Assembly: GCA_964592855.1 (NCBI GenBank)
Contig: CAZQKI010000002.1
Span: forward strand, 4,356 to 68,355
Source of the DNA: an uncultured Lentisphaerales bacterium
GTDB lineage: Bacteria; Verrucomicrobiota; Kiritimatiellia; RFP12; JAAYLN01
Direction of reading: 5' to 3'
DNA length: 64,000 bases
Part shown: positions 3,555-45,720 of the stretch, piece by piece
Layout of the letters: each line of letters begins with the position of its first letter
Numbering within the stretch: the first letter of the stretch is position 1
The notes under the pieces: generated by a model
Database searches by the model: none
Told to the model about the DNA's origin: nothing
The model's input: the letters and a program-made list of their open reading frames with translations, nothing else
Translations under genes and position numbers: made by a program

Positions 3555-5456
3555 ATGGCAAAAAAAGTAACAAAGATCCAGCCGGTTGACGGCACCGCCT
3601 CCGCGGTGCGTCCCCGCATTCATGTGACCGACACCACGCTCCGCGATGCGCATCAGTCCCTTTGGGCGACGCGCATGCGCATGGACGACATTCTGCCGGT
3701 CATCGACGTGATCGACCGCGCCGGCTACTATTCGCTCGAGTGCTGGGGCGGGGCGACCTTCGACGTCTGCCTCCGCTTCCTGCGCGAGAATCCCTGGGAG
3801 CGTCTCCGCCTCATCAAGGCGCGTTGCAAGACGCCGCTGCAGATGCTGCTGCGCGGACAGAACATCCTGGGCTACCGCAACTATCCCGACGATGTGCTCA
3901 AGCGCTTTGTCGAGCTGGCCGCGGCCAATGGCATCGACATCTTCCGCATCTTCGACGCGCTCAACGACACGCGCAACCTCGAACAGGCGATCCGCGCCGT
4001 CAAGGCCGTCGGCGCGCATGCACAGGGGACGATCAGCTACACCTTCAGCCCCGTCCACACGGTTGAAGCCTACGTGAAGCTGGCCCGGGAGATGGAGGCG
4101 CTCGGCGCCGATTCGATCTGCATCAAGGACATGGCGGGAATCCTGACGCCGTCGGCGGCGGAGGAACTGACGTCGGCGCTGACCACCGGCGTGAAGATTC
4201 CGGTTCAGCTGCATGCCCACATGACCAGCGGCATGGCGGTCGCGGCCTATCTCGCCGCGGTGCGCTCCGGCACCGGCGCCGTCGACTGTGCCGTGGCCTC
4301 GATGTCGGGCTGCGCGTCGCAGCCGGCTGTCGAAACCATCAACGCCGTGTTGAAGGCGGCTGGTTACGACACCGGACTGGACATGGACGCCATCCATGAG
4401 GTGAACCAGTACTTCCGCAAGCTCAAGCCCCTGCGCGAGCCCGATCACGGCATCGTCGATTTTGTCGATGTCAACGTGCTGGAGCACCACATTCCCGGCG
4501 GGATGATCTCCAACCTCCGCTCGCAGTTGCAGCAGCAGGGGGCTTTGGACCGGCTGGACGAGGTGCTGAAGGAGCTCCCCCGCGTCCGCGCCGACATGGG
4601 CTATCCGCCCCTCGTCACTCCCACCAGCCAGATCATCGGCGTCCAGGCAGTGCTCAACGTCATCGGCGGCGAGCGCTACGGCATGGTGCCGCAGGAGACG
4701 CGCGACTACGTGAAGGGCCTCTATGGCCGTTCGCCCGCCCCCATCGATCCGAAGTGGGCGAAGAAGATCCTCGGCGGCGAAAAGCCCGTCACCTGCCGCC
4801 CGGCCGACCTGCTCAAGCCCGGCCTGGCCGAGGCCGCCAGCGGCCTGGACGCCAAGCTCGTCCAAGCCGAGGAGGACATCCTCTCCTACTGCATCTTTCC
4901 CGAAGTGGCGCTGGGCTACTTCAAGTGGCGTGCGCTCCCGGTCGACCAGCGTCCGCCGTCGCCGGCCGAGCTGGAGCAGAAGGCCCAGGCGCCTGCTGCC
5001 GAAAAGCCGCCTGCGGCCGCGGCCGTGCCGGCTGCTGCCGACGACGATACCTTGCGCTTCGCCGAAATCGGTCGTACGCTGAGCCGGCTTTTCCGCCAGA
5101 TGGGCGGAGCGGCGCTTGGCCCGTGCGAGCCCCTTCCGGCGGATGCGCCGCCGGTCGCCGCCGCGCCGCAACCCCCCGCCGCCAAACCTGCGCCCGCCGC
5201 CGAGGCGGTTCCCGCGGGCGAGACGATCAACGCTCCCTTGAACGGCACCTTCTACCGGACCCCCGGCCCGGGCAAGGCGAATTTCGCCGAGGCGGGTGCG
5301 ACCTGCAAGGCCGGCGACACCGTCTGCGTCGTCGAGGCGATGAAACTCTTCAACAGCATCAAGGCCGCGAAGAACTGCAAGATCGTCAAGTTCCTGGTCG
5401 AGCACGGGGCCGTGGTGACCAAGGGGCAGCCCATGGCTGTAATCGAGACGCTGTAG
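3555..5456 (+). CDS. Biotin-dependent carboxyltransferase 5S subunit with C-terminal biotinyl (BCCP) domain: oxaloacetate decarboxylase alpha / pyruvate carboxylase subunit B family
   Basis: N-terminal HMGL-like TIM barrel ([23 protein letters not shown]), conserved carboxyltransferase domain, Ala/Pro-rich linker, and C-terminal biotin attachment motif [14 protein letters not shown]. Confidence 0.8.
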
Positions 5457-9760: not shown

Positions 9761-9885
9761 CTACTCTGCGCGTCAACTATTTTTACGCGCACCCTGAACG
9801 CGGGCCGGCATTTTCCTCCGCTTGACTTTCGCGCAGATTCTGCGTACAACGGGGACGTTTGCACATTTTATTCGGAGGTTCCATC

Positions 9886-10713
9886 ATGGCTGAATACAAG
9901 ATTTCGCTGGCGTCGTACTCCTTCCACGGCATGCTGGGAGAAGGGGTCCGCGACGTTTTCGGCTATCTCGACGCGTTGAAGTACCGTCACCAGCTCGACT
10001 GGGCGGACATCTGGACGGGGTTCATTCCCACGCTCGACGACGCCTTCATCCGCAAGGTGCGGCAGGCCATGGATGCCCGCGGGATCCAGTTGGCCAACCT
10101 CTGTGTCGACGGTCCCTGCGTCTGGGTCGACACGCCGGAGAAGCGCCAGGCGAACAAGGCGCAGATGCTGCTGACGATCCAGGCCGCGCATCTGCTGGGC
10201 GCGAAGACGATCCGCATCGACTTCGGCGGCAAGGATGGCCACACCATGACCGAAGAGGCGTTCGACTGGATTGTCGCCACCTACCGCGAGTACTGCGCCA
10301 TCTGCGGCAATCTCGGCATGCGCATCGGCCCGGAGAACCACTGGGGCTGGGACCGGGTGCCGGCGTACCTCGAGCGTGTCCGCGCGGCGGTGGACTCGCC
10401 CGCCTACGGCCACCTGTATCACTTCACCAACTTTTTCGACGAGCCGGAGAAGGGGCAGGCGGTCGCGATATCCTATGCGATGCATACGCACATTCCGGCG
10501 AACAGTCTGCCGGTGGCGAAGGAGACGATCCGGAAACTCGCGGCCTCGGGCTACGCGGGCACCTATTCGGTCGAGCACCACTCCGGGGCGCATGAGGCGG
10601 AACGGGTGGAGTGGCAACTGGGTGCGGTGCGCAACTGCATCGTGGAACTGAAGGCGGAGGGCATTGGCGAGCCGGCGAAGACCGACTATGTCACCGCCCT
10701 CTACCAAAAATAA
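9886..10713 (+). CDS. Sugar phosphate isomerase/epimerase (xylose isomerase-like TIM barrel)
   Basis: MAEYKISLASYSF... AP-endonuclease-2 / xylose-isomerase-like TIM barrel pattern (IRIDFGG, GPENHWG, EHHSGAHE). Start at MAEYK, downstream of the spurious MHILFGGSI extension. Confidence 0.65.
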   Translation: MAEYKISLASYSFHGMLGEGVRDVFGYLDALKYRHQLDWADIWTGFIPTLDDAFIRKVRQAMDARGIQLANLCVDGPCVWVDTPEKRQANKAQMLLTIQAAHLLGAKTIRIDFGGKDGHTMTEEAFDWIVATYREYCAICGNLGMRIGPENHWGWDRVPAYLERVRAAVDSPAYGHLYHFTNFFDEPEKGQAVAISYAMHTHIPANSLPVAKETIRKLAASGYAGTYSVEHHSGAHEAERVEWQLGAVRNCIVELKAEGIGEPAKTDYVTALYQK

Positions 10714-14094: not shown

Positions 14095-14291
14095 TACCTG
14101 TCTACTCGAGAATGCGGTCTTGTGAACAGAGCTTCTTGCGTTTCGACCATTTCCATGCTCAAACTCAGTCTGATGCCCGGTGAGCCGCATTATTTGCGGC
14201 GCGGGCGGCACCGTGCCGGACGGTGCTCCAATTCAACTGCCGTCGCATTTGCTCCCGCGTTCTGGCACGCTTTGTGCGTTTATTATCCCGC

Positions 14292-15098
14292 ATGTCAGCT
14301 CAGCCTCAACCTGCCGCGCGGCAACCCAACAGAGCCCAATCGGACTCTGCAGGGCATCCGTTGCAATTTGCGTGCCAGACGCGCGGCGGATTCACCCTTT
14401 TTGAGATGATGGTGGTGGTCTTGATCATCTCGATTCTGGCGGCCATGACGGCGGTGGCGGTCAACAGCGCCAAGGAGAAGGCGCGCCAGACCGACTGCAT
14501 GTCCAACCTTCGGCAACTGGGGACGGCGATCGTGACCTATCGCGCCGACAATCGCGGGCGCAACCCCGGCTGGCTTTCAAACCTCTATCCGACGTATATC
14601 GACGACAAACGGGTCTATATCTGCCGGAGTGACAAGGCGAGAGGCCTTGGCGATTGTCGTCCCGGTGTTTCCGAAATCAATGGCCAGGATAACGTCTTTG
14701 ACAATAGGGACAACGCTTTGAGGCGAAACCCCGCGCAGGTTCCACAGATGGCCAATGATGCCATAGAAGCATGCAGCTACTTCTATGAGTTTTCGGCGGC
14801 GCCAAGCCCCTGGTCTACGGAAGATCTTGATGGCGACGGATTCACGACCTGGTGCGATTTCAAGGAAAACCAGTTGGCGAAGGGCGATCAGAATAATGAG
14901 AACATGCCGTACAGCTCGTCACGGATGCCGATTGTGCGTTGCTATCACCACACAAATTCTGGCAAAATCAGGGGCTATGCCAATGAGAACGCGACCACGC
15001 CCTCGCTTGAGCCAATTACCCTCAACGTAGCGTATGCGGGCAATGTCATCATCTCACCGCTTTGGTGGGAGGGTGCGCTGGAACCCGGTGAACAGTAA
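14292..15098 (+). CDS. Prepilin-type N-terminal cleavage/methylation domain protein (pseudopilin-like, DUF1559-type)
   Basis: GFTLFEMMVVVLIISILAAM class III signal preceded by a long 32-aa leader. Start set at MSAQPQP; the earlier listed start gives an implausible Cys/Arg-rich extension. Confidence 0.7.
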   Translation: MSAQPQPAARQPNRAQSDSAGHPLQFACQTRGGFTLFEMMVVVLIISILAAMTAVAVNSAKEKARQTDCMSNLRQLGTAIVTYRADNRGRNPGWLSNLYPTYIDDKRVYICRSDKARGLGDCRPGVSEINGQDNVFDNRDNALRRNPAQVPQMANDAIEACSYFYEFSAAPSPWSTEDLDGDGFTTWCDFKENQLAKGDQNNENMPYSSSRMPIVRCYHHTNSGKIRGYANENATTPSLEPITLNVAYAGNVIISPLWWEGALEPGEQ

Positions 15099-20428: not shown

Positions 20429-22204
20429 ATGGCTGAAGTTTCCGAATCCCCCGCCGTTGCTCCCGCGTCCGTGCCGCCGCCTGCCGTCGAGCAGGATCTG
20501 CGCTTCTACGGCGCCGACCTTGTCCAGGATTTCGTGACGCATCTGCTGGAGCATCAGCTGATTTCCGAGGAGCAGTTGACCGAGGTGCAGAATCGCTCCT
20601 CGCTCACGGGACAGCCGATCGACAAGCTCCTGATCGACGAGGCCATCATCGATGAGAAGGCGCTCCTCGCCGCGTACAGCGAGCTGAGCGGCATCCCCTT
20701 CCATAAAATCGGCGATTTCAAGATCGACCCCAGTCTCGCGGAGCGGGTCAATTCGCGACTGGCGCTGCGCCACCGCGTGGTGCCCGTGGCGCTGGCCGAC
20801 GGCGTCCTGACCCTGGCTGTCGCTCGCGTACCCCCGTCCATGACGGTCGAAGGCCTGCGCATGGTGCTGGAGATGCCCATCGCCTTCGTCCTCTGCACCG
20901 ACAGCGACGTCTCGCGGTCGCTGACCCATTTCTACGGCCTGGGGGCGGAGACGGTCGAAGAGCTGATCGCCAACGCGCCCGTCGATGAAAACGAAGACGC
21001 GGATGATGACATTTCCTCCATCTCGGACGAGACGGGCATGGTGCGTTTCATCAACATGATCATTGCCGAGGGCATCCGCATGGACGCCACCGACATCCAC
21101 ATCGAGCCCTTTGAGGACACGCTGCGCCTCCGTTGCCGCGTGGATGGCATCCTGCAGGAGGTGCCGCTGCCCAAGGGGGTCGAGAAGCTCCGGCGGTCGG
21201 TCTCCTCGGCCGTGAAGATCATGGCGGCAATGGACATCGCTGAACGCCGCAAGCCGCACGACGGACGCATCAAGGTCCGGTATGACAACGGCGAATACGA
21301 CTTGCGCGTCTCGGTCCTCCCCACCGGCTACGGGGAGACCTGCTGTCTGCGTATCCTGAACCGCAGTTCGGTCTTCACCGACCTCGACCGCCTCGGCCTC
21401 TCGCCCAATCAGCTGCCGAAGATCCGCGCCATGACCGACCTGCCGCATGGCGTCATTCTGCTGACGGGGCCGACGGGCAGCGGCAAGACGACCACGCTGT
21501 ATGCCATCCTGGCGCGGTTGAACGTCACGGGGGTGAAGATCATCACCGTGGAGGATCCCGTCGAATACCGGATGGACGGGGTGAGCCAGGTCCAGGTTCA
21601 CAGCAAGATCGACCTGACCTTCGCAAACGTGCTGCGGTCGGTGCTCCGCCACGACCCCGACGTGATTCTGATCGGGGAAATCCGCGACTCCGAAACGGCG
21701 GACATCGCCGTCCGCTCCTCGCTGACGGGCCATCTGGTGTTAAGCACGCTGCACACCAACGATGCCCCGAGCGCCATCACGCGTCTGACGGACATGGGCG
21801 TCGAACCCTATCTGATCGCCTCCTGCGTGGAGGGCATCGTCGCCCAGCGCCTCGTGCGCAAAGTCTGCACACAATGCGCACATCCCGATGAGCTGGCGCC
21901 GGGAATCCGCAGCGAGATCCTCGCCTTCTACCCGAGCTTCGCGGATACGGCCAAGTTCGTGCTGGGCAACGGCTGCCCCAACTGCGCCTTCACCGGGTAT
22001 CGCGGACGAAGCGCGATCAACGAAGTGATGGTGATGAGCGACCCCCTCCGCAGCCTGGTGGTGCGCCGTGATCCCGCGAATCTCATCAAGGATCTCGCGA
22101 TCGCCGAGGGGATGATCACCCTCCGCCGCGATGGCTACCTTCGCGTCGTCGAGGGGCGCACCTCGGTCGAAGAGGTGCTGCGCGTCGTCGGCAAGGGTGA
22201 CTAA
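20429..22204 (+). CDS. Type II secretion / type IV pilus assembly ATPase (GspE/PilB family)
   Basis: Walker A LLTGPTGSGKTTT, GspE signature VEDPVEY, His box, tetracysteine motif CTQC...CPNC. Confidence 0.9.
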   Translation: MAEVSESPAVAPASVPPPAVEQDLRFYGADLVQDFVTHLLEHQLISEEQLTEVQNRSSLTGQPIDKLLIDEAIIDEKALLAAYSELSGIPFHKIGDFKIDPSLAERVNSRLALRHRVVPVALADGVLTLAVARVPPSMTVEGLRMVLEMPIAFVLCTDSDVSRSLTHFYGLGAETVEELIANAPVDENEDADDDISSISDETGMVRFINMIIAEGIRMDATDIHIEPFEDTLRLRCRVDGILQEVPLPKGVEKLRRSVSSAVKIMAAMDIAERRKPHDGRIKVRYDNGEYDLRVSVLPTGYGETCCLRILNRSSVFTDLDRLGLSPNQLPKIRAMTDLPHGVILLTGPTGSGKTTTLYAILARLNVTGVKIITVEDPVEYRMDGVSQVQVHSKIDLTFANVLRSVLRHDPDVILIGEIRDSETADIAVRSSLTGHLVLSTLHTNDAPSAITRLTDMGVEPYLIASCVEGIVAQRLVRKVCTQCAHPDELAPGIRSEILAFYPSFADTAKFVLGNGCPNCAFTGYRGRSAINEVMVMSDPLRSLVVRRDPANLIKDLAIAEGMITLRRDGYLRVVEGRTSVEEVLRVVGKGD

Positions 22205-22213
22205 TGCGGGCCG

Positions 22214-22262
22214 GTAATCAGTAATCAGTCATCAGTAATCAGTGATCAGTAATCGGTGATCA
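22214..22262. repeat. Tandem heptanucleotide repeat (GTNATCA)x7
   Basis: gtaatca gtaatca gtcatca gtaatca gtgatca gtaatcg gtgatca read directly, 10 nt after the pilB stop. Confidence 0.9.
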
Positions 22263-22337
22263 GTGGGACAAGTTAGTTTCTCGCAAAGGCGCAAAGGCCG
22301 CAAAGGGTTTCAACCTTGACGTCTTTGGGTAACGTTC

Positions 22338-22453
22338 GAAAATCTGGACGCTCAGCCCCGAAAGGTGGGGCGAGCCGTCTCGGCGAGCCGCGCGATGGGG
22401 TGCGGGGGCGGCTCGGCGGGGACGCCTCGCCCTACCTTTGAAAATCTGGGCGC
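22338..22453. repeat. MITE-like palindromic element flanked by 14-bp direct repeats GAAAATCTGG(A/G)CGC
   Basis: DR at 22338..22351 and 22440..22453. Between them a ~17-bp outer stem (ccgaaaggtggggcgag / ctcgccctacctttg) enclosing inner hairpins gccgtctcggc and cgagccgc...gcggctcg. Confidence 0.6.
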
Positions 22454-22491
22454 ATGAGCCGAGTCGAGTAAGTGAGGATCGGGGAGCGTAT

Positions 22492-22815
22492 CCGGTTAAG
22501 GGTGGCGGTTAAGAGTAAGCGGTTAAGAGTGTGCGTTGCTCAGGACACTTAACCGTACACTTCGTCGCCACCCTTAAGCGGAATGGCGCGTACTTAAGGT
22601 CGTTTTGGGACAAAACGCCGTGATAGGCTTTGCCTGACGTTGTTTGTGGGTGTGTGAGTTTGTGAGTATGTGGGAAGTGTGCGAAAAGACAGGCGATACG
22701 TGACATTATTTCGCTCACACACTCACACACACACCCACACACCCACGCACCAGACAATTTGACCAACCATCGTCATGGCAATGGGCTTAAGTACGCGCCA
22801 TTCCCCTTAAGCGGA
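22492..22815. repeat. Nested inverted-repeat structure (candidate structured ncRNA or MITE)
   Basis: Tandem cggttaag(a/g)gt x3 (22492..22535). A 27-28 bp outer IR cccttaagcggaatggcgcgtacttaag (22571..22598) vs cttaagtacgcgccattccccttaagcgg (22786..22814). An inner ~40-bp GT-rich / CA-rich imperfect hairpin (22641..22751). A small hairpin cgttttgggacaaaacg at ~22602. The listed ORF 22509..22766(-) lies inside and is considered spurious. Confidence 0.6.
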
Positions 22816-23075
22816 TACCCGATCCCCGCTTATGCGATCCCGCCTGGGGGCGCCGGCAGCGGGAGAATCGAGGACGAGGACGAGAACGATGAAGATTGAT
22901 CGTTGTCGTGATCCTCGTAGCGATCTTCAACTGAGCATCCACGAGAAATCTCATATCTCATCCCGCTACGAGCACGGGATGGTCCACATAGCGCGCCGCG
23001 TAGGAAATACAGGCGCGAATATCCGCGGCATCCAAGTCTGGAAAGACGACAGTTTAGCCATTTCGCCCGTCAGGA

Positions 23076-23624
23076 TCAACTCGGTAGAACCAGCCCTTTT
23101 GCAACGGCGTCGGCAGTGGCTGCGCCGGCGAGCCGGCGGACGATGGCGAGGGCGAAGTCGAAGCTGGTGCCGGGACCCTGGCTGGTGATGATGTTGCCGT
23201 CCTCGACGACGCGGTCATCGATGCGCCGGGGCACGGTCAGCGCCCCGGCCACGCCGGGATGACAGGTCACGGTACATCCCGCCAGGAGGCCGGCGGCCTG
23301 CAGCACCAGCGGCCCGGCGCAGATCGCGGCCACGGGCTTGCCCTGCTCGACGAAGGTGCGCAAGGCCTGCAGCAGGCGTTCGTCCTTCTGCAGCAGCCGG
23401 GTGCCGCCCATGCCGCCGGGGATGGCGATCATGTCGAACGTGCCGGGATCGATTTTCGACCAGGCCGTGTCGGCCACCAGCTTGACGCCGCGCGAGGCGG
23501 TCACCTGCAGCGCATCGGTCATCGCGACGGCGACGGCTTCGATCTTCGCCCGCCGGAGGACATCCAGCAGGATCACGCATTCCATCTCTTCGACGCCTTC
23601 AGCCAGGGGAACCAGAACGCGCAT
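23076..23624 (-). CDS. DJ-1/PfpI family protein
   Basis: AAICAGP nucleophile elbow motif and overall DJ-1/ThiJ pattern (IAIPGGMGG). Confidence 0.8.
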   Translation of the reverse strand: MRVLVPLAEGVEEMECVILLDVLRRAKIEAVAVAMTDALQVTASRGVKLVADTAWSKIDPGTFDMIAIPGGMGGTRLLQKDERLLQALRTFVEQGKPVAAICAGPLVLQAAGLLAGCTVTCHPGVAGALTVPRRIDDRVVEDGNIITSQGPGTSFDFALAIVRRLAGAATADAVAKGLVLPS

Positions 23625-45001: not shown

Positions 45002-45284
45002 GGCAGTTCTCTAAAAAGATGTGGGTAAGCGGGACTCGATCCCCGACCTCTGGTTGATTTCTGAAGCAGTGGTGAAAATGGCTTTCAAGCTGATGAAAAC
45101 GGCATCTAGCTACTCTGTTCGAGCGACCGTGAGCAGGGGTTTGCCGAGCCAAGCGAACAGGTGAATTTTATCAATTTATCACTTCGCTGGCAAGGATGCG
45201 ACAGGATACAATTGACCTTGAACGGTCCGATACGTCCCGCTCCACCGCTCGCGCCCGGATCGATGCGTCCGCACAAGCTTCGGC

Positions 45285-45530
45285 GGACGCTTACGGCGAC
45301 GCTTACGGTCGACGACAAGACGGTGCTTCTCGTAATCCGTAAGCGTCGCCGAACGCGTCATCCGGGTCCCACGGCAGTTACCCGATTCTTTGTCTCGATC
45401 TTTGTCTCGATCTTCGTCGATCTGAAGCTATGTCCCGATCCTCGTCCCGATCTTTGTCGGTCGACAATGATCGGAACAAGGATCAAGACAAGGATCAGGA
45501 CAACGATCCGGAGCCCCGATACTGACCGAG
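45285..45530. repeat. Repeat-rich leader region upstream of hisD (direct and inverted repeats)
   Basis: gacgcttacgg x2 with inverted copy ccgtaagcgtcgcc (45290..45355). ctttgtctcgat x2 plus gtcccgatc repeats, mirrored by gatcaagacaaggatcaggacaa (45385..45510). Confidence 0.6.
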
Positions 45531-45598
45531 AAAGGGCCGAACGACGGTGTACAGGGTAGGCTCGCAAGCTCGCCCCCATGACGCCGGAGCGTTATCCG

Positions 45599-45720
45599 TC
45601 TCGCGCAAAGGTGATCTGGACTCGGCGGTCCTCCGCCGTAGAGAAATCCCACTTGATCCAACTGGCGGCCGCCGGCCGCCAGAGGCCCCACTGAACGCTG
45701 AACCCTGTCCCCTGAACCCT
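45599..45720. repeat. REP-like composite element (same family as 9262..9760)
   Basis: cgcgcaaagg...ggactcggcggtcctccgccgtagagaaat followed by gatccaactggcggccgccggccgccagaggccccactgaacgctgaaccct. Both modules adjacent here, separated by ~300 bp at the first locus. Confidence 0.7.

Follow-up and report, generated by a model that had tools for sequence, protein, structure and literature searches.

The closest described counterpart of the main element at this locus is the S23p-type intervening sequence (IVS), known from Leptospira, Coxiella, Xanthomonas and Brucella and located in helix 9, 25 or 45 of 23S rRNA. The Coxiella IVS, which has been called selfish, combines an S23p (four-helix-bundle) ORF with tandem heptamers, three GACAGAT units of variable copy number, and RNase III cleaves the stem formed by its inverted repeats (PMC4990558). 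Smaller elements have other counterparts. MITEs such as Correia, RUP and MIC231 are small and non-coding, with terminal inverted repeats, a flanking duplication and a hairpin fold. REP/BIME sequences are GC-rich imperfect palindromes in spacers at gene ends. Cyanobacterial STRR sequences are 7-bp repeats of unknown function that can form hairpins, namely when inverted copies are present (PMC2670836).

A variable gap between two conserved gene blocks

The window analysed here is a stretch of 64,000 nt (64 kb) from an uncultured Lentisphaerales bacterium, a PVC-type host. Two gene blocks converge in it on a gap of ~870 bp (22205–23075): the pilM...pilB operon ends with a T2SSE/MshEN ATPase gene of PilB/GspE type (pilB, 20429–22204, plus strand), and the rpmH-rnpA-yidD-yidC-DJ-1 block ends with a DJ-1/PfpI gene (23076–23624, minus strand). 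The GC content of the gap region is 0.50–0.58, compared with ~0.65. The repeats that a first-pass annotation had listed here (heptamers, a palindrome with direct repeats, a triplet and inverted repeats) all lie where it placed them and go far beyond chance: the inverted-repeat arm was observed 2 times, the heptamer array 6 times and the TTAAG unit 4 times, each with about zero expected from shuffled windows. The list was nevertheless incomplete, lacking a fourth, inverted TTAAG unit, a 12-bp repeat, the outer inverted repeats and a hairpin of GATC-containing units. The gap is also not unique in the window, since a second repeat-rich spacer lies at 45030–45720.

Similarity to close relatives is lost immediately beyond both flanking genes. 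In L192, whose DJ-1 is 94% identical, the 27 nt past the stop codon are identical and the sequence is unrelated from ~23049 on; the aligned DJ-1 3' flank (23050–23075, minus strand) is the sole portion of the gap common to the window and this closest relative. In L193 (73% identity) DJ-1 is followed 12 nt on by queC, and pilB is absent. On the other side, L008 (PilB 83% identical) differs straight after the pilB stop codon and has a TTAAG triplet, CGTTTAAG(C/G)GTG, ~215 nt downstream of it, in the position corresponding to that of the window's TTAAG element; the contig ends there.

We consider it likely that the junction of these two conserved gene blocks is hypervariable and has filled with small non-coding repeat elements: a gene-less copy of a TTAAG-unit hairpin, an insert nested in it and other modules, namely a GC-rich palindrome and an STRR-type heptamer array to the left and, to the right, a GATC-unit hairpin next to what may be a decayed toxin-antitoxin pair. 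It is probably neither a gene nor a switch. Among the three options that the first-pass annotation had named (structured ncRNA, a nest of non-autonomous mobile elements, a regulatory or recombination site), the mobile-element nest is favoured because two modules recur at many unrelated loci, because the insert has a terminal inverted repeat and a duplication and its removal restores the host element, and because the locus differs even in the relative with a 94%-identical DJ-1. Besides the TTAAG element, the palindrome arm is seen elsewhere (in L184 and L107), as is the heptamer unit (on unrelated plasmids).

The TTAAG-unit hairpin and its gene-carrying relatives

The main occupant of the gap (22461–22582 plus 22804–22840) belongs to a multicopy family of hairpins, of which it is a copy without a gene. 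Its left part, delimited by TRF, repeat search and blastn, extends from 22461 to the insertion point at 22582. It opens with the left terminus TAAGTGAGGATCGGGG, followed by three direct units and, after a short loop, by the inverted units with which the right arm begins. The direct GGTTAAG(G/A)GT units occupy 22494–22530 with a period of 13–14 nt (TRF: CGGTTAAGAGTGG x2.9 at 22493–22531), and inverted units lie at about 22545–22555, 22571–22582 and 22804–22815. The cggttaagagt triplet noticed earlier is the left arm of this hairpin. The right terminus, CCCTTAAGCGGATACCCGATCCCCGCTTATGCGA at 22804–22840, repeats the left terminus at 22464–22502 as its inverted complement (outer inverted repeats 22464–22502 / 22804–22837 in the repeat search) and aligns with family right ends (...CCGGATACGCTTAAACGACCCGCTTAATCGA). 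Family termini follow the rule TAAG(C/T)G(G/A)G..TCGG ... CCGA..C(C/T)CGCTTA, and the window has TAAGTGAGGATCGGGG ... CCCGATCCCCGCTTA. By blastn, the 22461–22582 stretch finds dozens of metagenome loci with homology reaching beyond the unit pattern; it aligns end to end with L130, L185, L184, L141, L088 and L159, and the inner-arm segment cgtacacttcgtcgccaccctta is identical in the window, L130 and L159. A local profile built from the family's four-helix-bundle (4HB) proteins found no 4HB gene in the 64-kb window and the arms of the window copy are 14 nt apart; it is therefore the gene-less form, with the same inverted-array layout as 32 gene-less family hairpins. The region 22455–22845 is predicted to fold into one giant hairpin on either strand (z = -10.5 and -12.8).

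In family members, G(G/T)TTAAGNGT units of 13–14 nt are repeated directly along each of two mutually inverted arms, with a 10-nt core recurring at a variable 3–4-nt spacer, and the arms end in TAAGCGGGTCGG ... CCGACCCGCTTA. Arm length varies widely, and direct arrays reach ten or more units. A metagenome scan with a three-unit pattern gave 104 stretches, many of them at contig ends and many with two or three arrays in both orientations; 32/46 plus/minus arm pairs were less than 60 nt apart, that is, gene-less. Several elements can share one contig (four in L088, at least three in L179), and from such related metagenome contigs we infer that the family is multicopy in the window's own genome as well. 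It was seen in PVC-type bacteria (Kiritimatiellia, Lentisphaerales, Verrucomicrobia) and is a widespread, apparently undescribed cassette family.

Full-length copies have one or two 4HB genes (PF05635, '23S rRNA intervening-sequence protein'; TIGR02436) between their arms. The between-arm ORFs of L179, L089, L119, L163 and L108 match PF05635 (E = 1e-10 to 1e-25) and TIGR02436, and the cargo is usually a double 4HB protein of ~249 aa; a HEPN/nucleotidyltransferase-like pair (judged from sequence, without a Pfam scan) and a URO-D-like gene also occur between arms. L179 has a hairpin-gene-hairpin-gene order, each gene being preceded by an array hairpin. The association also held in reverse: on all contigs of three database homologues of the L179 protein (L197, L198/199, L200, L201 and L202/203), GGTTAAGGGT-type arrays lay upstream of the gene and those of ACCCTTAACC type downstream of it, and the L197 termini are the same as the family termini. 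In gene-carrying elements the 140-nt flanks of the gene pair over ~100 bp, and G-U pairs were slightly more numerous on the sense than on the antisense strand in 6/6 usable elements. This link to 4HB gene cassettes is not visible from the window sequence alone. No transposase, recombinase, reverse transcriptase or integrase was associated with the family in the loci examined, and its mobility is therefore read from its distribution only.

The family shares with S23p-type IVSs the cargo family (PF05635, 'S23p'), its placement within inverted repeats that form a long stem, and short tandem repeats beside the ORF; decay or loss of the ORF likewise occurs in IVSs, which are described as selfish (PMC4990558). 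The stem surrounds an ORF in full-length members, whereas the window copy, unlike an S23p-type IVS, has the stem without an ORF. The arms also differ from those of IVSs in being direct arrays of 13–14-nt units, and the cargo in being usually double. Finally, while IVSs lie inside a 23S rRNA helix, TTAAG elements lie in spacers between protein-coding genes, as the window copy does; an rRNA search found none in the window or in 12 TTAAG-family loci. Gene-less hairpins relate to gene-carrying copies as MITEs do to parent IS elements, although the full-length cargo is not a transposase.

As a tentative idea, which we rate as possible rather than likely, the G(G/T)TTAAGNGT arrays could be specific binding or processing sites for the enclosed double 4HB (S23p/Avd-like) protein. 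Arrays and protein would then jointly form an undescribed class of PVC selfish cassettes, a free-living relative of S23p-type rRNA intervening sequences that resides outside rRNA and leaves gene-less, MITE-like hairpins as in the window. If true, the idea would offer a first way into the function of a very large, functionally uncharacterized protein family. The elements may spread as DNA into non-essential spacers, via an unknown trans-acting activity or by recombination. Where read-through from pilB or DJ-1 places the long stems in the tail of the RNA, they might, by analogy with S23p-type intervening-sequence stems, be cleaved by RNase III, and they may separate the two convergent genes as a 3' barrier.

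The nested insert and alternative readings of the gap

The first-pass annotation had treated the triplet, a 28-bp inverted repeat and a GT/CA hairpin as one element, but these belong to two nested ones: a 221-bp element (22583–22803), recognized by its terminal inverted repeats and flanking direct duplication, was inserted later into the right arm of the TTAAG hairpin, duplicating 10–12 bp of target. Its terminal inverted repeats, (GA)ATGGCGCGTACTTAAG / CTTAAGTACGCGCCAT(TC), are identical at 16/16 positions (18 with the GA/TC extension) and form part of a 26-nt inverted repeat of 96% identity (22573–22598 / 22786–22811); the arm has two sites only in the window, with 0 expected. Inside is a GT-rich / CA-rich hairpin (22641–22672 / 22714–22750) with arms 81–85% complementary. 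The insert is flanked by the 12-bp direct repeat CCCTTAAGCGGA (22571–22582 / 22804–22815, 12/12 identical). When 22583–22815, the insert plus one repeat copy, was deleted, the remainder gave a contiguous, collinear match to the family right arm, and the window copy then aligned end to end with family members. The CCCTTAAGCGGA copies, which sit inside an array of similar units, could instead be neighbouring array units.

Being small and non-coding, folding as a hairpin and nested in another repeat, with terminal inverted repeats, a duplication and a restored empty site, the insert resembles MITEs; its 10–12-bp duplication is long for a MITE. The annotation had proposed a copy-number check by blastn, and on metagenome loci the TTAAG element and the palindrome arm had further copies, unlike the insert, of which neither the window nor the 1.5 Mb of fetched loci has a second one. 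The insert-arm 19-mer was not found in a genome-contig collection that excludes the window's own genome, and neither the insert nor the TTAAG element could be linked to a parent IS or a transposase. The label 'MITE' therefore derives solely from the terminal inverted repeat, the duplication and the restored host sequence.

Could the gap instead encode stand-alone structured ncRNAs, for instance a hairpin sRNA of some length or a protein sponge in which repeated GGUUAAG(A/G)GU motifs titrate an RNA-binding protein? The very stable predicted folds, the resemblance of the variably spaced 10-nt cores to a binding-site array and the sense-strand G-U excess of gene-containing members fit such a reading. 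However, the fold is equally good on both strands, as expected of a DNA palindrome; Rfam has no family in the gap at the gathering threshold, with only generic GT/CA miRNA-type hairpins below it; a consensus scan of the gap gave one weak promoter-like site and no convincing terminator; and the locus is not conserved in close relatives while the same element appears in many unrelated contexts. We regard ncRNA as unlikely. A cassette system of the integron type, with the TTAAG hairpins as attC-like sites and the gap as a degenerate cassette array, seems more doubtful still. The alternating order in L179, the varied between-arm cargo, the fit of GTTAAGC and GTTAAGT units to the GTTRRRY core and a possible toxin-antitoxin remnant abutting the TTAAG element would suit it, but most units are GTTAAGG or GTTAAGA, which do not fit that core; known sites have one R/L box pair per arm rather than long direct arrays, arm lengths vary widely and no locus examined has an integrase.

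Even less credible is an invertible switch in which the 26-nt inverted repeats flip the 187-bp segment between them by site-specific recombination. Their length and spacing do fit known invertons and short-read contigs break within the segment, yet the breaks are located in the GT/CA low-complexity tract and all same-strain contigs that reach the segment (JGI L004–L007, Logan L001–L003) have the window orientation. The neighbouring genes scanned include no recombinase. There is no promoter-like site between the arms, nor anything for a promoter to drive, because both flanking genes end at the gap; the 12-bp flanking repeat and the restored host element fit insertion instead. Neither the ncRNA option nor the recombination-switch option of the annotation has positive evidence behind it. 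Nor do we give more than minimal weight to iterons or centromere-like sites of a chromosomal function (replication origin, partition site, dif-like site). Ordered direct and inverted short repeats and the lower GC are as such a site would have, and rpmH-rnpA-yidD-yidC adjoins the gap; an rpmH-rnpA-yidC block often marks origin regions. DnaA boxes, however, are not enriched (five near-matches in 64 kb against 4 expected, 0 in the gap), no dnaA is found among the neighbouring ORFs scanned and the cumulative GC skew has no sign change at the gap. Moreover, genes converge on the gap, which is absent or different in relatives, and elsewhere single contigs have many of these arrays.

Modules on either side of the hairpin

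To the left of the TTAAG hairpin, a tandem array of 7.3 copies of the heptamer ATCAGTN (= GTNATCA; TRF, as GTAATCA x7.3) lies at 22214–22264, beginning 10 nt after the pilB stop codon. Its units match at 84% (TRF), six overlapping matches stand against 0.06 expected in window shuffles, and it is the single such array in the 64-kb window; its copy number did not differ across four same-strain metagenome contigs. Plasmids of Microcystis aeruginosa, Pantoea and Mycetohabitans have nearly identical ATCAGTA/G/T arrays; the match on the Microcystis plasmid is 92% over 50 nt, and this plasmid also has an ATCAGTT array of 58.6 copies. Like STRR sequences, the array consists of tandem 7-bp units in non-coding DNA adjoining gene ends, and it shares the unit ATCAGTN exactly with the Microcystis plasmid arrays; STRR hosts are cyanobacteria, with many dispersed loci in filamentous ones, whereas here one array was seen in a PVC-type host. 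A short tandem array, CGCAAAGG(C) in 2.9 copies (22282–22306, TRF), has no further copy in the fetched loci except same-strain contigs.

The GC-rich palindrome with its bracketing direct repeats (22338–22453; stem arms 22361–22384 / 22416–22439) has a fold energy of -75.8 kcal/mol (z = -4.9 for 22330–22460). The bracketing 14-bp repeats, GAAAATCTGG(A/G)CGC, lie at 22338–22351 and 22440–22453; the repeat search gave GAAAATCTGGRCGC at 22338 and 22440, extending to 20 nt at 85%. The palindrome arm CGGCTCGGCGGGGACGCCTCGCCCTACC also occurs in L184 (27/28) and twice in L107 near contig ends, as a hairpin of opposite order. The palindrome proper (22352–22439) looks like the REP type: it is GC-rich and imperfect, sits in a spacer at gene ends, and its 27–28-nt arm is found at unrelated loci, either alone or in inverted pairs of both orders. 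The 14-bp flanking repeat is not a REP feature.

The first-pass annotation had dismissed an 85-aa ORF at 22509–22766 as spurious, and the frames scanned agree, giving no Pfam match for it. This ORF is the longest in the gap but not, as had been stated, the only one: six further ORFs of 41–118 aa start within the gap. Two frames across the insert (22512–22772, minus; 22666–22896, plus) lack Pfam matches too, and among ten stop-to-stop gap frames the one match was a sub-threshold hit of the minus frame 22961–23053 (31 aa), which ends like a DUF433 protein (..DAADIRACISYAARYV..; E = 0.0022, profile positions 41–56 of 56, below the curated cut-off). An overlapping ATG after this end opens MRFLVDAQL, an N-terminus that we take to be DUF5615-like, and reads straight into the GATC-unit hairpin. 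Going by stop-to-stop frames and this sub-threshold match, 22930–23053 (minus strand) is possibly a decayed toxin-antitoxin pair; it starts just where L192 loses all similarity. The hairpin itself (22866–22927) is small, with ~12-nt GATC-containing units and local fold energies of -29.6 and -22.8 kcal/mol. It is related to a hairpin at 45387–45512 in the second spacer (blastn 17/18, GATCGTTGTCGTGATCCT vs GATCGTTGTCCTGATCCT), where TRF arrays span 45277–45512, and is the only module of the gap with a second relative inside the 64-kb window.

Repeats at the junction of the pilB and DJ-1 genes

The spacer at 22205-23075 separates two convergent genes: that for a PilB/GspE-type ATPase (20429-22204, plus strand; Pfam domains T2SSE and MshEN; preceded by a PilM-like gene) and that for a DJ-1/PfpI protein (23076-23624, minus strand, followed on the same strand by yidC, yidD, rnpA and rpmH). 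It is best explained as a variable junction where small selfish repeats form a nest, and probably contains no hidden gene or switch. All the repeats listed in the first-pass annotation were recovered by TRF and a repeat search, and their counts lie far above those of window shuffles (2 to 6 matches observed, ~0 expected). The inventory comprises tandem arrays of GTAATCA (x7.3, 22214-22264), CGCAAAGG(C) (x2.9, 22282-22306) and CGGTTAAGAGTGG (x2.9, 22493-22531); 14-bp direct repeats GAAAATCTGGRCGC at 22338 and 22440 that bracket a GC-rich hairpin (arms 22361-22384 and 22416-22439); a 26-nt inverted repeat of 96% identity (22573-22598 / 22786-22811); and GT-rich and CA-rich arms at 22641-22672 and 22714-22750. 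Four further features had been overlooked. One more TTAAG unit, inverted, makes a fourth (22545-22555); the 12-mer CCCTTAAGCGGA occurs twice without mismatch as a direct repeat (22571-82 and 22804-15); outer arms at 22464-22502 and 22804-22837 form a further inverted repeat; and a small hairpin of GATC units lies at 22866-22927. The GC content is 0.50-0.58 in the gap versus ~0.65 in its flanks, and the 14-bp direct repeat, the inverted-repeat arm, the heptamer and the TTAAG unit have no further copies within the window.

Loci and contigs fetched for comparison, mostly metagenomic, carry L-numbers here. Contigs L001-L007, from metagenomes and Logan, encode flanking proteins identical to those of the window and have the same gap except for two SNPs, in a single orientation and with the heptamer array unchanged in length; they are uninformative on conservation because they represent the same strain as the window. 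In L192, whose DJ-1 is 94% identical, similarity ends 27 nt past the stop codon (near window position 23049) and the sequence beyond is unrelated. L193 (DJ-1 73%) keeps the order rpmH-rnpA-yidD-yidC-DJ-1 but lacks pilB, and queC lies 12 nt past its DJ-1 gene. L008 (PilB 83%) diverges directly past the pilB stop codon. The pilB/DJ-1 junction is therefore variable. The TTAAG motif recurs at it in L008, as CGTTTAAGCGTGG CGTTTAAGGGTGC CGTTTAAGCGTG ~215 nt downstream of the pilB stop, where the contig ends. The stretch downstream of DJ-1 in L192 (1262-1524) bears no resemblance to that of the window; an unrelated ORF on the minus strand apparently ends there.

A six-frame Pfam scan of the gap gave a sole, weak match, to a DUF433 C-terminus (22961-23053, minus strand; E = 0.0022, below the curated cut-off). 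An ATG overlapping this frame opens MRFLVDAQL, which has the look of a DUF5615-like N-terminus, and is interrupted by the GATC hairpin. Judged by sequence, the two may form a toxin-antitoxin remnant; this putative remnant begins exactly where the L192 similarity stops. As to the source lineage, PilB has its nearest relatives in MAGs that bear the label uncultured Lentisphaerales (identity 83-87%) or Kiritimatiellia (68%), and the closest source-named DJ-1 relatives are from Kiritimatiellae and Verrucomicrobia. The window ORF at 14223-15098 joins an N-terminal methylation motif to DUF1559 (SBP_bac_10), a pairing typical of Planctomycetes, Verrucomicrobia and Lentisphaerae that fits a PVC-type window.

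The TTAAG-unit family and a nested insert

We scanned metagenomes with the pattern TTAAGNGT-N2-4-CGKTTAAGNGT-N2-4-CGKTTAAGNGT. This three-unit pattern matched 104 stretches of lake, sediment, sludge, gut and marine assemblies; a large share of these lie at contig ends, and many have 2-3 arrays in both orientations. Family arrays run up to ten or more units, single contigs carry several elements, and a typical member is laid out as TAAGCGGGTCGG-(TTAAGGGTATCCGG...)n-short loop-(...CCGGATACCCTTAA)n-CCGACCCGCTTA. The window element (22461-22582 and 22804-22840) has this inverted-array form: in Blastn comparisons of the gap with the fetched loci, dozens match across 22461-22582, well past the pattern itself, and the inner segment cgtacacttcgtcgccaccctta is identical in the window, L130 and L159. 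The viral contig collection gave 0 matches to the three-unit pattern, and in the plasmid collection the heptamer array was the sole gap module with matches. Pattern matches in L112 and L174 (telomere-like repeats) and in L111, L157, L187 and L190 (AT-rich 15-nt arrays) were rejected as family members. The latter four have TTAAGGGTACTTCGT x9 arrays, inverted and ~1.7 kb apart, around small ORFs, and look like a different repeat system, possibly viral or eukaryotic. Hairpins composed of several kinds of unit seem to be frequent: in L088 and L184 (e.g. L184 13380-13560) TTAAG hairpins are nested in outer inverted arms built from other units (aactttgtcgattccaatcgc... and taacttNgtcgc arrays).

The family alignment tracks the window to ...CCACCCTTAAGCGGA (22582) and then ends; when 22583-22815 is deleted, the window becomes collinear with family right arms through ...GGATACCCGATCCCCGCTTATGCGA. 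The intervening 221 bp (22583-22803) have the termini ATGGCGCGTACTTAAG and CTTAAGTACGCGCCAT (18 bp counting the GA/TC extension), hold the GT/CA hairpin and are flanked by the 12-bp duplication. By its sequence this piece looks like a MITE-type insertion into the right arm, the duplicated 12-mer being itself an array unit. The first-pass annotation had joined the TTAAG triplet and the GT/CA hairpin in one module; these are in fact two elements, because removal of the insert restores a collinear family arm. The insert has no second copy in the window or the fetched loci, and its 19-mer inverted-repeat arm had 0 matches in the genome contig collection, in which the source genome is absent. Together, the TTAAG element and the insert fold into one 380-nt hairpin on either strand (z = -10.5 and -12.8), the equal folding of both strands that would be expected of a DNA palindrome.

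Four-helix-bundle genes between the arms

Where the arms lie 500-800 nt apart, they enclose ORFs that start M(T)QxFGHEKLxVYQK and match Pfam PF05635 '23S rRNA-intervening sequence protein' (E = 1e-10 to 1e-25) and NCBIfam TIGR02436 'four helix bundle protein' (4HB). Proteins of these families are related to the Avd protein of diversity-generating retroelements. In PVC bacteria, cyanobacteria and Bacteroidota, their genes belong to the most frequent small genes that still lack an explanation. In this lineage, inverted arrays of a single conserved 10-nt unit bracket the genes of one 4HB subfamily. When the proteins encoded beside arrays were clustered, 4HB proteins were the sole recurrent family, and there was no transposase, integrase or reverse transcriptase among them. 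For a reverse test we started from the L179 protein, which has 628 homologues at E <= 1e-10. Most of these are on 1-3-kb contigs, and three with long contigs were examined for arms; among the matches listed most were ~249-aa double-domain proteins, and the named ones came from Verrucomicrobia and Kiritimatiellia. In L197, L198/199, L200, L201 and L202/203 the 4HB gene is without exception preceded by arrays of the GGTTAAGGGT type and followed by arrays of the ACCCTTAACC type, and L197 shares the termini of the family. The 140-nt flanks of the cargo gene pair over ~100 bp, and G-U pairs are more frequent on the sense than on the antisense strand in 6/6 usable elements, which weakly suggests RNA-level pairing.

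Small cargo of other kinds may also lie between the arms. In L159 (296-1979) the genes between inverted TTAAG arrays look, by sequence, like a HEPN/nucleotidyltransferase toxin-antitoxin pair rather than a 4HB gene, and the L179 cargo also includes a URO-D-like gene. The order in L179 (3150-5460) is hairpin, 4HB gene, hairpin, URO-D-like gene, hairpin, and abutting element ends there have the palindrome GCTTAAGC in common. Most arm pairs (32/46) lie <60 nt apart and are gene-less, the window copy among them; the 64-kb window contains no 4HB gene. Such gene-less, MITE-like derivatives of 4HB cassettes are dispersed in spacers.

Among described systems, the S23p-type intervening sequence (IVS) of 23S rRNA comes closest. 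That of Coxiella, described as a selfish element, has an S23p (four-helix-bundle) ORF, variable-number tandem heptamers just upstream of the ORF, and an inverted-repeat stem that RNase III cleaves (PMC4990558). The TTAAG family shares with it the gene family and the design of a stem around a gene, but sits between protein-coding genes, builds its arms from arrays of a 13-14-nt unit and leaves gene-less hairpins behind. In the literature searched, non-rRNA 4HB cassettes with tandem-unit arms are not described. The bracketed subfamily and its gene-less copies tie 4HB genes to the selfish S23p IVS, and 4HB protein and TTAAG array make a concrete protein/repeat pairing that is open to testing. For the window itself the result is mostly housekeeping: a nest of selfish repeats is ordinary in kind, and the bracketed subfamily is a by-product worth following. 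The mechanism by which the repeats spread, and any part that they might play in RNA processing, are what we infer.

Alternative readings and the remaining modules

Three readings of the gap had been offered: structured ncRNA, a nest of non-autonomous mobile elements, or a regulatory or recombination site. The second is favoured, as modules recur elsewhere (by BLASTN, the TTAAG element, the GC-palindrome arm and the GATC hairpin, but not the 221-bp insert); the other two are not. A stand-alone structured ncRNA is unlikely: folding is strand-symmetric, we saw no convincing promoter or terminator, the locus is unconserved, and the TTAAG element is multicopy in unrelated contexts. Neither the window nor 12 family loci had a match at the Rfam gathering threshold, the family hairpins had none in Rfam 15, a permissive Rfam search returned GT/CA miRNA-type hairpins only, and a tRNA/tmRNA search found none. 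That the TTAAG hairpins are integron attC-like sites is very improbable: the gene/hairpin alternation of L179 is suggestively cassette-like, but the direct arrays are not attC-like and integrase is absent from the loci examined, L179 included. An inverton was rejected (one orientation in all contigs, no recombinase among the neighbouring genes scanned, no inter-arm promoter), as was a replication origin or partition site, since the gap lacks DnaA boxes, the skew does not switch there and the genes converge.

The other modules in the nest of repeats are of several kinds. The GC-rich palindrome (fold z = -4.9) has an arm, CGGCTCGGCGGGGACGCCTCGCCCTACC, that is also found in L184 (27/28) and twice in L107 near contig ends, there in a hairpin with the opposite arm order; we take it as a REP-like family, a reading that leaves the 14-bp flanking repeat unexplained. 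The heptamer unit ATCAGTN forms near-identical arrays on Microcystis aeruginosa, Pantoea and Mycetohabitans plasmids. The Microcystis array lies at a gene end and matches that of the window at 92% over 50 nt. The window array agrees with the published description of cyanobacterial STRR repeats, which are 7 bp long and capable of hairpin formation, and to which no function has been assigned (PMC2670836). Plasmid p1 of M. aeruginosa NIES-88 (L204) has 58.6 copies of ATCAGTT at 2-411 and 7.7 copies of ATCAGTA/G/T at 835-888, where an ASCH-domain gene ends.

The GATC-unit hairpin has 17/18 nt in common with arrays in a second long, repeat-rich spacer of the window (45030-45720); tandem-unit hairpins are thus not peculiar to the pilB-DJ-1 gap. 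That spacer contains three tandem arrays of 12-nt units (GCTTACGGCGAC x3, TCTTTGTCTCGA x5.7, GACAAGGATCAG x4.2), which together make up two strong hairpins, and also a GC-rich motif, ggtaggctcgcaagctcgccc, that resembles the palindrome arm at 22361-22439.

Finally, short-read assemblies of this lineage break at the gap because of the GT/CA tract and the TTAAG arrays, repeats that are systematic assembly breakers in the lineage. The window's short-read contigs end within the GT/CA tract (22726-22774), and in L198 (~9800-9900) and L199 (~4940-5045) runs of N mark scaffold gaps within the TTAAG arrays that precede the 4HB gene.
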